64,000 nt of DNA from Candidatus Bathyarchaeia archaeon. Its GTDB lineage: Archaea; Thermoproteota; Bathyarchaeia; Bathyarchaeales; Bathycorpusculaceae. This document shows, piece after piece, positions 55,652 to 61,552 of this stretch (positions within the stretch are counted from its first letter, which is position 1; every line of letters begins with the position of its first letter). Below the pieces are notes generated by a model. That model searched no databases, was not told where the DNA came from, and worked only from the letters and a program-made list of their open reading frames with translations. The stretch is taken from the NCBI GenBank assembly GCA_049521795.1, contig JBEKOM010000001.1, positions 288,001 through 352,000 of the forward strand, given 5' to 3'. A program made the translations under genes and the position numbers.

Positions 55652-56104
55652 TCAAGTGCTGGTTTGCGTTTGAGCTTTGGCTTGTTGCTCAGGTTCTTTC
55701 GGAGCCGTTTTTTCTTCCTTCTTTTCCTTCGGCTTCTTTCCTTCTTTAGGATGTTTTGGCTTTTCCACGATTTTCGCGTTTACCTGAACGATCTCGTCCG
55801 TTATGACGTTTCCCCGAATGCTTTTGCGTCTCCTCATCCCTCCGTTCAGCGGGTTGAAACCTACGCCGCCGCTGAGAACTATGCGTCGGCGAACACCGCC
55901 ATGTACGCTCGGCCTCATCGGGAACCCGTCCTTGTCGGAGCCGCCCATGATTTGGACCTTGTGTCCTGCGAAATCGACTATTGTTCCGTCTATGACTTCG
56001 CCTATTCTCCTGCCGATCAACGGGGTAGCGCGTGCTTCTTCAAGCTCAACCGCTTTTGATGTTCCCGTTTCGGGGTCTGAAACGATGACTTTGAACTTGG
56101 CCAT
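55652..56104 (-). CDS. rps6e: 30S ribosomal protein S6e
   Basis: FKVIVSDP, GGSDKDGFPMR and RRRKSIRGN. Confidence 0.96.
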   Translation of the reverse strand: MAKFKVIVSDPETGTSKAVELEEARATPLIGRRIGEVIDGTIVDFAGHKVQIMGGSDKDGFPMRPSVHGGVRRRIVLSGGVGFNPLNGGMRRRKSIRGNVITDEIVQVNAKIVEKPKHPKEGKKPKEKKEEKTAPKEPEQQAKAQTQTST

Positions 56105-56204
56105 TCGTCGTAGCCTCTTAGGTGGTGGTATGAAAGTTGAGCATCTCTCTATTAAGAATTGCGTGTTTTAGCAGTGTGAAGTTTGCGTCAATCGATGCCC
56201 AAAA

Positions 56205-56375
56205 AGCGCGTTGGCTTGTCCCTAAATTCGCAAAAAAATGAATTTTCAAAGCATATACGTTTTGCATATACACTTAACGAGCATCGTTGAAAACGGTGAG
56301 GCTGTTCATGTTAGCTGCGGAGCTCTGCGGGCTGTTCAAGTTCGCACGCATGATAAAAGGACACGGCAGCGCGCT
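56205..56375. repeat. ~170-bp TIR-bounded element, family A copy 2
   Basis: AGCGCGTTGGCTTGTCC ... GGACACGGCAGCGCGCT; GCATATAC at 56251 and 56264; collinear with the reverse complement of 13524-13704. Confidence 0.85.
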
Positions 56376-56534
56376 ACAAATTGCTCAACAACCTAGGCGC
56401 GTTCTTGATGAGAGAATCTTGACGAGGCAATCGGTTGCGATTCGTGATAACGCGCTTTTAGCGTGCAGTTCGAGAGGGAAATCAGCTTCGAGGGAGTAAA
56501 AGTTTTAATCTTGCTTTGAAGAGGTTTTCTGGCC

Positions 56535-57722
56535 ATGTGGCGGCTGGGGTTCTTTTTCCACGAAATGGGGTTCGGATTGCTCTCGATTTTTCTGCCGCTT
56601 TACTTGCTTAGAATCGACGCTGCGAATGGGCTGTTCTACGTTGGGGTAATCACTGCTATCGCTCTCTTCGCGGCTATTCCTGCCTCTTTCTTCTGGGGCT
56701 ATTTATGCGACAGGACACGGCATTATAAGCGTTACATCCTTCTTGCGTTCCTCGCGTCGGCCGTCTTGCTCTGCCTCTTCGCGTTTACGACAGAAATAAC
56801 TTTGCTGATTGTAATATACGCGATAATGTCGATTTTTCACGTTGCCCATGAAGCTCCGAAAAACATTCTCATCTCTGAGCTGTATTCTCATCGAGATTGG
56901 GAGAAGAATTTCGCCTTCTACGAGGGGGTCACGGAAGTCGGGACGCTAATCGGTCTTCTGTTAGGCTTCTTTGCCTCGTATTTTGGGGTTAGTGCGGTGA
57001 ACACCCTTTTTCTCGTAGCAGGGTTGAACTTCGCAGCCTTCGTTCTATCTGCAATACTCGTCGTGGACCCCCCAATGATTTTTGAGAGAAGCTTAGTGAG
57101 CATCGAGAAGACTGTTGACTTCGCGTCTCACGGTGTCTTCCTGGCTTCCAGAATGGTGGACGGCATAGGTCTGGATGAGAAATTGAAAAGAGAGAACGTC
57201 ACAGCCTTCTGCTTCGGACTAGTGCTTTTCTCGCTTGCCACGAGCATACTGTTCACTCCTATGCCCGTGTTTGTGAACAGCATCGCGCCGGCGGGGTTCG
57301 TCTTCGCGATTTTCGTGCTCAATTCCGGGGGAGCTATAGGGGGCTACGCGTTGGCTGGAAAAAGGTCGCAGGGGCCAACTGGAAAAGCCCGCGTGGCCGG
57401 ACTAGTGCTGTTTCGAAGCCTGCTTGCCTTCGTACTTCTCGCCGCCTTGAATCTGTCATCTTTTAACGTTCTGCTGACCACTGGAATTCTAATCGTCATG
57501 GGATTTCTCTTTGCATTCTTTATGGTGACGATTCTTGCTCTATCTATGGAGCTTATACCAGCGGGCAAAGCGGGTCTGATCAATGTTCTGATAGGGCTGG
57601 GAGGAGCATTCGGCTCATTTATCGGCCCTTTCATCGCTCAGGTTTCGGGTTTCCTCCAAGTTTTCATTGTGGCCGGTGCAATATTCTTCGCCGCCTTCGT
57701 CTTCTTCAAGATCTTCGCATAG
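56535..57722 (+). CDS. MFS transporter
   Basis: About 12 hydrophobic segments; motif A-like WGYLCDRTRHYK. Confidence 0.9.
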   Translation: MWRLGFFFHEMGFGLLSIFLPLYLLRIDAANGLFYVGVITAIALFAAIPASFFWGYLCDRTRHYKRYILLAFLASAVLLCLFAFTTEITLLIVIYAIMSIFHVAHEAPKNILISELYSHRDWEKNFAFYEGVTEVGTLIGLLLGFFASYFGVSAVNTLFLVAGLNFAAFVLSAILVVDPPMIFERSLVSIEKTVDFASHGVFLASRMVDGIGLDEKLKRENVTAFCFGLVLFSLATSILFTPMPVFVNSIAPAGFVFAIFVLNSGGAIGGYALAGKRSQGPTGKARVAGLVLFRSLLAFVLLAALNLSSFNVLLTTGILIVMGFLFAFFMVTILALSMELIPAGKAGLINVLIGLGGAFGSFIGPFIAQVSGFLQVFIVAGAIFFAAFVFFKIFA

Positions 57723-57749
57723 GCAGGAGAAGAAAAAGGGGACAGATGC

Positions 57750-59204
57750 TTACTCGACGTGTACTCTGAAGAGGTCTATGTCTTCTCTCATTTCAGGCGT
57801 TGCTTCGAGGAAGTCTCTCACCGCGTGTTCAACGTCCCTTGATTGTGTCACGTATCTTCCGACGATGATTATGTCAGCGCCTTTTTGCAGGGCTTCTCTT
57901 CCAGTCTCTGGCACTATTCCGCCTGCCACAGCGATCAGAAACTTCTTGTCCTTGAAGGTCTGCCTAATTTCCGGGATGATCTCCAACCCGTGTGTTCTTC
58001 CTGTTTCTTGGTCTATTCCCCTGTGGAGGATGATGATGTCGGGGAACTCTTTGATCGACCTAAGCTTCTTGAGTGCGTCTTCAACGTTCATCATGTCGAC
58101 GACGGCGTATATTGCGAGTCTCTTTGCTTCGTGAATGAACGAGTCGAGTGTTTCAGGAGCTGCCAGTCCCGAGGCGACAACGGCGTCTGCCGTTTCGTCG
58201 TAGGCGAGGTCAACTTCGACTTTGCCGACGTCCAGGGTTTTGAGGTCGGCTACGAAGAAGATGTCCTTGGCCACTTCTCGCAGTTCGTTTATCACTTTTG
58301 TTCCGTATCTCTTGATCAGAGGTGTTCCAACTTCCAGGATTATTCTGTCGCTTCCCGGCAGCTGTGCTATCACTTTCTTTGCTCTTTCTACGTCTGGGTT
58401 GTCAAGCGAAATCTGCAGGTACGGCGGTCTCCACAGGCGGGGCACTTTGAACCCCATTATCGGGTGTCTGGCTCTGTCCTTGTCGTAGAGGATCTTCTCG
58501 AGCGATGGGTACTTTGCTAGGGCCCTTTTTAAAGCCAGCTTGGTGGCTCCGTAGTTGTAGTGATAGATCTTGCGGAAGTCGCTTGCTTGAGGATGCACGA
58601 ATACGCTGGCCACTATGACCCAGTCGTCGATCTTGTCTCTGGGGATTATTCCGTCTTCCACTGAGTCAGCAACAGCTTTTGCGACTGCAGCTTGGGCTGG
58701 TCCAAATATCTTGCCCACGTCTTGAATGTTTTTTATGGTTACTTTGGGCACGAGCAACGTGTGCGGTTTAGGCGGAAGGTTCGGTCTTATGACTGCCAAC
58801 AAGGGCGTGTGTCCCGCAGACAGGTTGCACATTCCTGCTGCAAAAGCAGCTCCGACCGGCCCGTTCTTGTCGCCTATGAGCAGGTCTATGTGTGCAACCT
58901 CGTTTCCCTCTCCGACAAGTGCCTCGCCAATCAAGTATGTGCATCCTGATTCTTCGACAGATTCCGACATTAGATTTGTCGGCAAGCTGTCCGTGATCTC
59001 TTTGAAATCAACATTGAATTCTTTGAGCCACGTGTAAAGCGTGTCCCTGTGAATGTCCAAGGCTTCAGCCGTTCCTAGGACTGTAGGCTTTGTCGGTTTG
59101 ATTCTCGTAACAGTACGGGTTTCGGTGGCTCTCTTGGCAGCTTCCGTCAGCATCTTAACGAGTTCTTCTCTTGTTTCAGGCTTTTTGATGTCGTGTTCCG
59201 ACAT
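57750..59204 (-). CDS. fae-hps: bifunctional formaldehyde-activating enzyme / 3-hexulose-6-phosphate synthase with extra N-terminal HTH
   Basis: Fae [19 protein letters not shown] and [14 protein letters not shown]; Hps [19 protein letters not shown] and VAGGI; ~85-aa N-extension with [18 protein letters not shown]. Confidence 0.93.
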
Positions 59205-59429
59205 TTCTGACTCACAACTGGTATCTAGCTGTGCATTAGGTATATAAGAGTGTCGGCCACATAGAAGTCAGAAGGACCAATAGCCCTGTGGCCGCCATAG
59301 AACTGTCGCTTTTAGGCTGCATATGAGGTATTCTTCAGGCGCCACCTGTGGTCTCTGGTCGCAAAGTGTCGGAGTTGGAGGGCCGAAGGCATTTCAAGGA
59401 TGGCTAGGTGTCGGGATGTCTGATGTCAG
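58964..59429. promoter_or_regulatory. TGTCGG/CCGACA site cluster around the fae-hps promoter
   Basis: Exact copies at 58964, 58977, 59091, 59198, 59251, 59367 and 59409; minus-strand TATA (CTTATATA) at 59241-59248. Confidence 0.65.
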
Positions 59430-59531
59430 ACTGCATGGTGTAATGGTTGATGATTCTGTTCTCAGAGCGGCAAAGTCTATATACTCTGAGACAGTGTAGA
59501 ACGGTAAAAACTGGCTTCGGGAGTTGCCTCG

Positions 59532-59711
59532 ATGTGGCGGAGAGACGTAGTGTTTCTGTTCCTAGTGATCTTAGGTGTGGTCTTGTTCTTGTATGGCGCT
59601 AACTATTATGGCGTCACAGTGGGTTGGACTGGCATCGGCCTGCTTGTTGCTGGGTTTTTTGGTTATTTGGCTCTGAAAGTGTATGAGGCCTCAGCGAAGA
59701 AGAAAGAATGA
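59532..59711 (+). CDS. 59-aa two-TM membrane protein
   Basis: Manual translation MWRRDVVFLFLVILGVVLFLYGANYYGVTVGWTGIGLLVAGFFGYLALKVYEASAKKKE*. Confidence 0.7.
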   Translation: MWRRDVVFLFLVILGVVLFLYGANYYGVTVGWTGIGLLVAGFFGYLALKVYEASAKKKE

Positions 59712-59724
59712 GTAAGATCCGCGG

Positions 59725-59823
59725 ACGCTACATCCTTGTATTCGAGTTTTCACCAAGGCTATTTCGACTACCCCTTCCCCCCTAGGGTGTTGCTACTGCA
59801 CGTGGGCGCTGGGGAAAGGCCCT
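59725..59823. repeat. ~95-bp dispersed repeat, family B copy 2
   Basis: ACGCTACATCCTTGTATTCGAGTTTT ... CCCCTAGGGTGTTGCTACTGCACGTGGGCGCTG ... GGCCCT; direct match to 27680-27770. Confidence 0.8.
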
Positions 59824-59848
59824 TTGACTTAGTTATCATCTATTCTTC

Positions 59849-60850
59849 CTAGGTTACTCTGAGCTGTTCCACTTCTTCTTTCTGTGGGACTTGAACACTC
59901 AGTGGTTTCTCGCAGCGCTGCTTGCCGAATTTCACTTGTACGTTGCCTTGTTTCTTGTCTGAGTGGTAAGCGGTCAGCTCCGCGGCTTTCTCGATGGCGA
60001 TTCTGGTTTTGGGTCCTTGGAGCAAGGCTATGGGGCTTCCGCAGTCTTGGGCTTCGAAGCAGTAGTCATTCGCATCCTTCATTCGGATCAGGAGCTTGTT
60101 TTCAGTTTCGTTTCTGCCAACTATGATTTTGTTCTTTTCAAACCTGAAGTGTCGTCCAGTTTTCAGCAGCTGCACGTCCTTCAAGGAGACTCTTCTTTTG
60201 TGCTCAAACAGGTCTTTCAGTTTGGCAGCAAATTCCTTGTACGTTAGTAGGCAGCCTCCGCTGGGGCACGAATAGCCAATTACGCTCATCTCTTCTGCAA
60301 GCTTGATCTGCTTCTTTCTTGAGCGGCCCTCGATGCCGAGCAGGGCTTCTCCGTTTACGAAGCCCTTCTCTTCGGCTTCACTCTTCGGCAGCAACCTTGC
60401 AGACAGGGGCCTGAGGACCTTTCCCTTCAAGCCTGCTTTTTCCTCTATTAGGCTTAGAGTTCTTCCATGCTGTGACATTGGTCTTTGACCTAAGACTTCG
60501 CCGGTGATGATGAACCGCGCGCCTGTTTCCTCTGCATACTTCTTGGCCTTCTTCAGCATGAAAATTCTGCAGTCAACGCAGGGGTTCATGTTCTTTCCGT
60601 AGCCAAACCGCGGTTTTCTGACGATCCTGAGGTATTCCTCGCCGACGCTGATCGTTCTCAACGGTATGCTAAGGCTCTTTGCCACTTCTAGGGCTCCGCA
60701 GCCGCCTTTTCCGCAGAGACAGAAGGGGCTCACAAAGTTAACTGCTTCAACATCTATGCCTTGATCCAGCATGAGCTTCACGGCCAGCGTGCTGTCTAAC
60801 CCGCCGGACAGAAGGGCTAGAGCCTTCGTCTTCTTGCCTCTCGAAGCCAT
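59849..60850 (-). CDS. PP-loop tRNA thiouridylase-like protein (ThiI/MnmA-like)
   Basis: LLSGGLDS PP-loop, NPCVDCRI, TGEVLGQRPMSQ and PSGGCLLT. Confidence 0.88.
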   Translation of the reverse strand: MASRGKKTKALALLSGGLDSTLAVKLMLDQGIDVEAVNFVSPFCLCGKGGCGALEVAKSLSIPLRTISVGEEYLRIVRKPRFGYGKNMNPCVDCRIFMLKKAKKYAEETGARFIITGEVLGQRPMSQHGRTLSLIEEKAGLKGKVLRPLSARLLPKSEAEEKGFVNGEALLGIEGRSRKKQIKLAEEMSVIGYSCPSGGCLLTYKEFAAKLKDLFEHKRRVSLKDVQLLKTGRHFRFEKNKIIVGRNETENKLLIRMKDANDYCFEAQDCGSPIALLQGPKTRIAIEKAAELTAYHSDKKQGNVQVKFGKQRCEKPLSVQVPQKEEVEQLRVT

Positions 60851-60976
60851 AGTTTTCACAGCGTTAACACACGCCTTTAACATTCTGACGTATTAATGGG
60901 TTACTCAGAAGCTTCGCACACTAGAAAAAGAGGGTTTGTCAAGGGGTTTATTTTGCCCTTGATCATCCTTCTGGAA

Positions 60977-61396
60977 CTAGACAAAGAGAGTTACGTCTGC
61001 ACCTGCTGCTATGTTGAGGAATGTTGCTGCGCCGACTAGTTCATCCACTTCAGGAATCAGGGCTTCTTTTTTTATGCTGAACATTTCCATGCTCGGAGTG
61101 CAGGCGTATATCTTGAGGAGCCCCGAAGTCTTCATTCTCTTGAGCATTTCGTAAGGCGTGGGATAATTCATCTGTTTCAACCTTTCTCTCATCGGTTTTT
61201 CCATCTGCTTGTAATCGCTTGGCAAGCTTGCTTTTTCCATTGCTCCTTTGACGAGTGCTTGGAGACCCCAGAAAGTGAAGTAGAGGTGCGCTTCCCACCC
61301 CATCGACGTTGCGGTTGACCCCAATATGAACGCACAGTAGAGTTTGTCCAACGTTCCGCTCTCAACTATCAACGCTAGTTTCTTTTTTTCAGGCAT
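60977..61396 (-). CDS. DsrE/DrsH-like (DsrE2) sulfur-carrier/peroxiredoxin family protein
   Basis: SGTLDK, YFTFWGL, IYACTPSM, VGAATFL and TLFV. Confidence 0.88.
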   Translation of the reverse strand: MPEKKKLALIVESGTLDKLYCAFILGSTATSMGWEAHLYFTFWGLQALVKGAMEKASLPSDYKQMEKPMRERLKQMNYPTPYEMLKRMKTSGLLKIYACTPSMEMFSIKKEALIPEVDELVGAATFLNIAAGADVTLFV

Positions 61397-61552
61397 AAGG
61401 TCACATTCCATTTTAGGTTAAAGCGGAATATGACATATGTAATATTTAATGCTTTCTGCACCCTCTGTTGAGTTGAAGCACTAGCGCGGGCTTCTCCAAC
61501 GGTACCAAGAGTTGAAAGATTGTCTGGGGATGCTTAGAAATGAGGGTTGAAT

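Follow-up and report, generated by a model that had tools for sequence, protein, structure and literature searches.

A gene for a fused formaldehyde-activating enzyme (Fae) and 3-hexulose-6-phosphate synthase (Hps) was analysed in a 64,000-nucleotide stretch of DNA (the window) from contig JBEKOM010000001.1 of Candidatus Bathyarchaeia archaeon (assembly GCA_049521795.1); the genome to which it belongs has a size of 2.44 Mb and is designated G000. The encoded protein consists of an N-terminal domain (N-domain) with a predicted helix-turn-helix (HTH), a linker, the Fae domain and the Hps domain, and copies of the word CCGACA lie on both sides of the gene start (Table 1). The protein is interpreted here as an autoregulating enzyme-regulator that is probably a repressor of its own gene, with CCGACA as the candidate operator, a reading to which we assign a probability of about 0.7 from the comparison of sequences.

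Table 1. Features of the gene and its 5' region. Positions are those of the window; signed numbers in the feature names count from the start codon. pLDDT, predicted local distance difference test.
Feature	Position	Strand	Remark
HTH-linker-Fae-Hps, whole gene	57750..59204	-	484 residues plus stop codon, ATG start
N-terminal domain, residues 1-73, predicted helices 12-29, 42-48, 53-62 and 67-73	58986..59204	-	
HTH proper, residues 42-62, predicted helices 42-48 and 53-62, putative recognition helix with HRDTLY	59019..59081	-	
Variable linker, residues 74-89, with non-conserved Met79	58938..58985	-	pLDDT <50 at 77-87
Fae domain, residues 92-250	58455..58931	-	Pfam, NCBIfam and PDB relative
Hps domain (OMPdecase fold), residues 261-464	57813..58424	-	Pfam, NCBIfam and PDB relative
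CCGACA at -210	59409..59414	-	copy there in 9/79 loci
CCGACA at -168	59367..59372	-	copy at -158/-168 in 8/79 loci
CCGACA at -52, three bases 5' of TATA box	59251..59256	-	79/79 loci
TATA box TTATATA	59241..59247	-	TTA[T/A]ATA invariant in 79 loci
Shine-Dalgarno-like GTGAG, 7-11 bases ahead of ATG	59211..59215	-	G-rich -11 to -9 in most loci
Inverted TGTCGG on codons 1-3 (ATG TCG G), bases +2 to +7	59198..59203	-	77/79 loci
CCGACA at +109, encoding Pro37-Thr38	59091..59096	-	copy at +96..+118 in 71/79 loci
CCGACA at +223, encoding Pro75-Thr76	58977..58982	-	copy at +205..+230 in 61/79 loci

Both enzyme domains are complete. Pfam aligned Fae over profile positions 1-159 of 159 (E = 1e-69, 234 bits) and the OMPdecase/Hps domain over positions 1-220 of 221 (E = 2.6e-33), and solved relatives spanning the enzyme part were found in the PDB (1y5y for Fae, E = 4.9e-44; 9lj9 for Hps, E = 5.4e-27). 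The NCBIfam equivalog for bifunctional Fae/Hps, NF009833, scored 579.7 bits against a cutoff of 274, with residues 90-483 placed on profile positions 2-390 of 392. Many residues of the enzyme part are invariant across 50 sequences, and the catalytic activities are predicted on this basis. As the NF009833 alignment begins at residue 90, about 89 N-terminal residues fall outside the curated family; relative to the methanogen Fae-Hps proteins of NF009833 the enzyme part is a full-length member and residues 1-89 are extra. The earlier note on this DNA, made by a model from the sequence alone, had described some 85 extra residues fused in frame to intact Fae and Hps domains and absent from the Fae-Hps fusions of methanogens, and this description held apart from the slightly greater length.

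The extension was examined in homologous proteins. The best 120 of 6203 homologues were 467-527 residues long with a query coverage of 96-100%, which argues against a chance open frame. The long form was seen in all of the best 80 loci from a species-level genome collection, with matches over query residues 1-484 (in L064 only to residue 476, where the stored locus ends), and the HTH motif together with the start 'MS..D.KKPE' was conserved in 79 of them, the exception, L061, having been missed by the motif expression. The invariant residues of the N-domain include K8, P9, T41, A46, H52, R53, D54, T55, L56, W59, E62, F63, V65 and F67. Codon-position entropies were calculated from 19 equal-length genes. 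For residues 39-68, the HTH core, positions 1, 2 and 3 gave 0.29, 0.14 and 1.06 bits; the corresponding values in Fae were 0.29, 0.11 and 1.25 bits, and linker residues 74-89 varied at all three positions. Judged by these values, the HTH core is as constrained as Fae and has the codon-position pattern of purifying selection.

An in-frame ATG is present at codon 79 in the window gene, and translation might begin there, in which case the upstream start would be an annotation artefact and the 5' part an untranslated regulatory sequence. Met79 was found in only 4 of 16 aligned homologues, and the pattern in the HTH core is that of a protein under selection. The upstream start is preceded by a TATA box and Shine-Dalgarno-like bases across the 79 loci of the promoter set, a stop codon lies immediately 5' of it in 32 loci, and in four loci GTG or TTG takes the place of its ATG. 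An internal start, which according to the earlier note would speak against the whole idea, is hardly credible in view of the unconserved Met79 and the conserved upstream start. The conserved start, the preceding stop codons, the lack of conservation of Met79 and the codon-position entropy together indicate that the extension is translated.

The structure of the N-domain was predicted with AlphaFold2, a check that the earlier note had suggested, using an alignment of 77 sequences. An HTH-like arrangement of four helices was obtained, with pLDDT values of 82-88 over residues 41-70 and a mean of 68.9 for the model, and the same helices were kept in the full-length model, in which the pLDDT below 50 at residues 77-87 suggests a flexible linker. 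In an exhaustive search of 48,161 PDB representatives with VIA-align the best 50 entries had Z values of 4.3-6.1 and, by title, all resemble DNA-binding helical domains; they include AraC, TetR, sigma factors, the NtrC1 DNA-binding domain and the P22 small terminase. The predicted fold is consistent with an HTH, which is not proof of one. The motif that the earlier note called Fis/HTH_23-like is present at residues 42-63 and gave a further sub-threshold Pfam match to GP3_package. The label itself was not established: HTH_23 stayed below its cutoff, Fis-type HTH_8 gave no row at E up to 1 (the HMMER filters drop most matches above ~0.1) and the sole structural echo of the Fis type was the NtrC1 domain (Z = 4.4).

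The distribution of the N-domain was surveyed in several collections. Among the records of the best 80 loci, 79 are labelled Bathyarchaeota, Bathyarchaeia or a member taxon; L025, with the same gene and the label Candidatus Acidoferrum, is probably a mis-binned contig. The frame of L047 (96% identity to the window gene) ends 87 codons past HRDTL, probably owing to an assembly error or frameshift. Of 121 Bathyarchaeia genomes sampled evenly, 18 were matched by the N-domain profile, distributed over families f1 (9/9 and the genome of the window), f4 (3/3), f5 (3/3), f12 (1/2) and f17 (one weak match). At the level of the phylum it was found in 27 of 301 genomes, all of them Bathyarchaeia, and in none of the other classes searched. 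A search of 1.84 billion representative proteins with the 88-residue domain returned 34 proteins at E <= 1e-3, most of which are N-terminal fragments of Fae-Hps. By these searches, which the earlier note had also proposed, the extension is conserved in 79 of 80 loci and the N-domain is a small, lineage-restricted family, confined to Bathyarchaeia in the phylum sample.

Some proteins carry the N-domain in other settings. P0129 (153 residues) has it on a different C-terminal part and P0144 (108 residues) consists of little else, so that the N-domain appears to be a mobile module. Six weak matches (P0137, P0145, P0148, P0152, P0153 and P0154; 314-571 residues) contain 3-6 tandem HTH-like units resembling the HTH of the N-domain, with the pattern ..LG[VI]s..T[VI]..WL..y.I. 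An apparently stand-alone N-domain in G341 was rejected as a contig-end fragment.

Promoters were compared as 79 distinct sequences of the 120 bases 5' of the start codon, one from the window gene and the others from 78 loci. They share the consensus T-CCGACA-n-T-t-TTATATA-CAAG, in which CCGACA and TTA[T/A]ATA are invariant in all 79 sequences and the flanks are randomised; the word begins 48-54 bases ahead of the start codon across loci. The window gene has copies at -210, -168, -52, +2 (inverted), +109 and +223, and 26 of the 79 loci have a further one at about -105. The spacings -105/-52, -52/+2, +2/+109 and +109/+223 are ~53, 54, 107 and 114 bases, near whole numbers of helical turns.

Codon choice within the gene follows the word. 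The invariant Ser2 codon, TCG in all 79 genes, fixes TGTCGG on the start codon; elsewhere in these genes TCG accounts for 207 of 1350 serine codons. Pro-Thr pairs are written CCGACA in 161 of 197 cases in the N-domain and in 8 of 37 in the enzyme part, against an expectation of ~13% from codon usage. Within the segment KPTKPT the first Pro-Thr is fixed as CCGACA and the second, at +118, varies freely (CCT, CCA, CCC).

Such fixed synonymous sites could also reflect a role in the mRNA, where UGUCGG on the start codon would pair with CCGACA at +109 or +223 and mask initiation; both words are in the transcript, and their complementarity is perfect. The copies at -52, -105, -168 and -210, however, lie 5' of the TATA box and should be untranscribed, and minimum-free-energy folds of bases -14 to +250 showed pairing between the start-codon word and any CCGACA copy in only 27 of 79 sequences, with differing partners. 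Given the invariance of the -52 copy and the outcome of the folds, a role at the RNA level is very unlikely.

The specificity of the word was assessed in the whole genome. CCGACA is enriched 1.1-fold in the interval -80 to -20 of 1852 crude gene calls, compared with 4-6-fold for TATA-like hexamers, and is not a general promoter word in this genome. The densest cluster of CCGACA/TGTCGG is at the 5' end of the Fae-Hps gene (7 copies in 450 bp, 0.18 expected), as is the only CCGACA-N40-56-TGTCGG pair. The genome has a single occurrence of the exact 16-base pattern. Among the 121 class genomes it was found in 17, once in each; 13 of these matches sit 35-65 bases 5' of an open reading frame (ORF) with the N-domain, and the other four, located elsewhere, are comparable with the eight matches of the reversed control pattern.

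Two further candidates in G000 were rejected. The only other cluster, of four copies, falls within GC-rich coding sequence of contig C32 and was attributed to chance or contamination. This contig (6372 bases) is GC-rich, has long overlapping open frames unlike the remaining genome and may be bin contamination (stated contamination 4.37%). A match to CCGACA plus TATA at C10:16329, with a 4-base spacer and only a 63-residue ORF within 260 bases, was ascribed to chance.

For comparison, 5' regions were also inspected in Fae-Hps genes without the N-domain, of which the class sample contains ~41 at full length; 34 of these were covered, together with six further genes that have the N-domain (HTH-A). 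A ribbon-helix-helix (RHH) class of 17 genes from families f8, f11, f14, f17, f26 and f27 has an extension of ~57 residues with the sequence 'GLVRAPGRITxEQYxFLExLVxxGRFxSVSEAVRAAI' (loci L085, L086, L095, L096, L098, L099, L101, L104, L106, L108-L112 and L114-L116). Pfam cutoffs were exceeded by L108 (RHH_1, 26.1 bits, cutoff 20.5) and L106 (ParD_antitoxin, 21.4 bits, cutoff 21). The promoters of this class have GTGACAC-N4/5-GTGTCAC-like inverted repeats 12-15 bases 5' of the TATA box, and at least one GTGWCAC was present in 16 of the 17; the exception, L116, has GTGGTAC-N4-GTACCAC.

A different HTH (HTH-B) was found in two genes of family f10, L088 (genome G011) and L092 (genome G035). L092 matched HTH_7 (26.6 bits, cutoff 23.8) and HTH_23 (26.1 bits, cutoff 24.6), and L088 matched Sigma70_ECF (22.8 bits, cutoff 21.1). 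Both promoters have TGCGGCA/TGCCGCA repeats (TTTGCGGCA/TGCCGCAAA), one of them immediately 3' of the TATA box. Comparison of the N-domain with the HTH-B extension by hhalign aligned 23 HTH residues with a probability of 13%, so that homology of HTH-A and HTH-B is not shown.

The remaining 15 genes have no extension, and none of them carries any of the three promoter motifs. CCGACA within -130 to -30 was found in 0 of the 34 genes without HTH-A, including 0 of 17 in the RHH class, whereas the exact word is present at about -52 in the further HTH-A genes of G077, G090 and G098. Both words, CCGACA at -52 and TGTCGG on the gene start, are also present in a contig-end fragment of family f31. In G102 a second HTH-Fae-Hps copy (L122, contig C94) has the recognition helix QLDTLY in place of HRDTLY and a promoter without CCGACA; this copy could be a paralogue that has escaped autoregulation. 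Across these genes the class of predicted DNA-binding domain co-varies with the promoter motif, and the CCGACA sites, picked out by conservation, uniqueness and co-variation, are candidate operators of the HTH-Fae-Hps gene.

The co-variation also bears on whether the N-domain contacts DNA at all. It might be an HTH-like module that serves another purpose, for instance assembly of the oligomer or docking of a partner, and CCGACA might be the site of another factor or a promoter-specific element. The HTH family matches of the N-domain are all below cutoff, its structural matches are of modest Z, and with 34 hits at E <= 1e-3 among 1.84 billion representative proteins the family is tiny and offers no characterized relative to vouch for DNA binding. 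Three unrelated or distantly related DNA-binding folds nevertheless share the N-terminal position, each with its own promoter repeat; two of the three pass Pfam cutoffs (RHH_1; HTH_7/HTH_23), and the three motifs are missing from the genes that lack an extension. A TATA box is missing beside the copies at -105, +2 (inverted), +109 and +223, and a special form of the TFB recognition element (BRE) would leave these unexplained. A role of the N-domain away from DNA is therefore considered improbable.

Autoregulation through CCGACA remains the preferred reading, and several points weigh against it. In Pfam, with the 80-residue piece, HTH_23 reached E = 0.0018 and 18.5 bits (cutoff 24.6), HTH_28 18.0 bits (cutoff 25) and HTH_29 17.7 bits (cutoff 28.1). 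A Z of 4-6 in a small helical domain may reflect only a common arrangement of helices. Foldseek gave no match in the PDB at E <= 0.001, its weak list consisting mostly of TetR-type DNA-binding domains, and the best hit of a PDB sequence-profile search with the N-domain alignment, the phage protein 2ao9, was not significant (E = 0.072). Two of five more distant HTH-A genes have one-letter variants of the word (CCGGCA in G062, ACGACA in G007). The co-variation rests on few independent events, namely three classes plus none, each largely one clade, and shared ancestry could explain part of it. A separate, unlinked factor that binds CCGACA is possible, as is an activator that recruits TFB from the BRE position.

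The interpretation in the earlier note is supported in part. Its core, an enzyme-regulator with its own DNA-binding domain, finds strong support in comparative genomics, from the conserved HTH-like domain, the operator-like array of words and the co-variation of domain and motif; the response to a ligand and the multivalent binding through Fae oligomers that it added are treated below as tentative. Methanogen Fae-Hps joins formaldehyde to the one-carbon carrier tetrahydromethanopterin (H4MPT) in its Fae part and cleaves or forms hexulose-6-phosphate in its Hps part, and the window protein would catalyse the same reactions. A flexible linker of ~15 residues would tie the enzyme to the N-terminal HTH domain of ~73 residues, and this domain would bind the CCGACA word. 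The BRE, beside the TATA box, is the normal contact of TFB. The -52 copy adjoins the TATA box at what would be the BRE position, and the inverted copy on the start codon would lie a few bases 3' of the transcription start, which is expected about 10-15 bases ahead of the ATG. With both core copies occupied, TBP, TFB and RNA polymerase would be hindered; the enzyme would thus repress its own gene and its level would be held steady. It is the location of these two copies that favours repression as the probable sign of the effect.

Binding of the same array might instead activate the gene by recruitment of TFB/TBP, giving positive feedback or substrate-induced expression. Sites upstream of the BRE are typical of archaeal activators, the -52 copy is 5' of and beside the TATA box, the extra copy at -105 is present in 26 of 79 loci, and in bacteria formaldehyde induces the hps-phi operon by way of HxlR, an activator. 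The word, however, begins only 9 bases ahead of the TATA box, overlapping the place where the BRE is expected, the near-invariant copy on the start codon is 3' of the expected transcription start, and in the HTH-B genes a repeat follows the TATA box immediately; BRE-overlapping and downstream positions are usual for repressors. Activation is accordingly regarded as rather unlikely, though less so than a role of the N-domain away from DNA.

Under the repressor reading, the in-phase array suggests joint binding by several heads of one oligomer, and the HTH heads of a single enzyme oligomer would then occupy several copies together. Fae is a pentamer (a literature search for a Fae homopentamer gave no paper), and 1y5y and 1y60 in the PDB comprise ten Fae chains over two entries. 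Formaldehyde, methylene-H4MPT, ribulose 5-phosphate or hexulose-6-phosphate may modulate DNA binding. We tentatively consider a ligand-gated nucleoprotein switch, in which the HTH heads of the oligomer would grip in-phase CCGACA copies over ~430 bp (-210 to +228) and release them once the active sites are filled by formaldehyde, methylene-H4MPT or a sugar phosphate; this extended form is a possibility rather than an expectation.

A full-text literature search, in which few subscription journals were covered, found no paper on a DNA-binding domain fused to Fae-Hps. The gene has two features of a 'trigger enzyme', an enzyme and a predicted DNA-binding domain in one polypeptide and candidate operators at its own promoter; trigger enzymes are a functional class and not a homologous family. 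The closest system overall, especially for the RHH-Fae-Hps forms, is PutA of Escherichia coli and Salmonella, in which an N-terminal ribbon-helix-helix is joined to proline dehydrogenase and pyrroline-5-carboxylate dehydrogenase. PutA is likewise a bifunctional enzyme with a small N-terminal DNA-binding domain that represses its own operon via several operator copies, and the RHH-Fae-Hps proteins of other Bathyarchaeia families share its DNA-binding fold class. It differs in its unrelated enzymes, its bacterial host and its RHH in place of the HTH of the window protein; its flavin-reduction/membrane-binding switch has no known counterpart in the window protein, and PutA is not known to have operator copies in its coding sequence.

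BirA and NadR also combine catalysis and repression in one polypeptide with an N-terminal HTH, but belong to other enzyme families, have an established co-repressor logic and bind palindromic operators as dimers. In Bacillus subtilis a dedicated transcription factor, HxlR, controls the hps gene within the formaldehyde-induced hps-phi operon (hxlAB); HxlR itself is a stand-alone activator with a winged HTH, and no HxlR-type domain was present among the Pfam matches of the window protein at E up to 1. The closest archaeal precedent for HTH-Fae-Hps is RbkR, the archaeal riboflavin kinase/regulator, in which an N-terminal HTH-type domain is fused to an enzyme (PMC5397151). RbkR was predicted from operator sites compared across genomes, its own gene belongs to the regulon and its DNA binding is modulated by the substrate and product of the enzyme (PMC5397151). 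RbkR differs in having a winged HTH, a kinase domain and a regulon of biosynthesis and transport genes (PMC5397151), whereas the sole motif cluster for HTH-Fae-Hps in the genome is at its own gene.

The upstream neighbours of the gene encode a ThiI/NFACT-R protein and DsrE, and a convergent gene for a major facilitator superfamily transporter is found downstream. With unrelated neighbours and its own TATA box, the Fae-Hps gene appears to be solitary with its own promoter. The spacer 5' of the gene (window 59205-59848, ~645 bp) is unusually long and contains the -168 and -210 copies as well as a hydrophobic-looking ORF of 59 residues on the opposite strand (59532..59711). The spacer is without a known RNA family, window 56000-61500 having given no match in Rfam and tRNA scans. 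A second Fae gene of G000 (contig C2, locus L082, 1486..2964, minus strand) encodes a 492-residue fusion of a DHDPS/DapA-family aldolase (residues 4-290; Pfam DHDPS, E = 9.4e-80) and Fae (residues 331-488, E = 1.6e-61); similar open frames of ~495-505 residues are numerous in other Bathyarchaeia genomes. For 6-phospho-3-hexuloisomerase (Phi, TIGR03127) no match above cutoff was found in G000. The best, a 409-residue open frame (C1:372456-372812), scored 62 bits against a cutoff of 160, and the partner of Hps in the ribulose-monophosphate route was not identified with TIGR03127.

Bathyarchaeia are among the most abundant archaea in sediments, peat and soils, and to our knowledge almost nothing is known about gene regulation in them. 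Fae-Hps stands where formaldehyde and the one-carbon carrier H4MPT meet the synthesis of pentose phosphates. The fused DNA-binding domain and a precise predicted operator, a 6 bp word at defined positions, make the protein a directly testable regulator, and confirmation would extend the enzyme-regulator logic of PutA, BirA and RbkR to archaeal one-carbon and pentose metabolism. Within the coding region the candidate operator copies appear to be imposed on codon choice, as seen in the invariant TCG serine and the CCG-ACA Pro-Thr pairs. Three classes of predicted DNA-binding domain and three candidate operators on one enzyme constitute a natural experiment; if the N-terminal position has indeed been filled by at least three domain classes with matching operators, this would point to strong and repeated selection for feedback from the enzyme to DNA. 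Should the ligand-gated switch prove true, the protein would be the first archaeal transcription factor responsive to formaldehyde or pentose.

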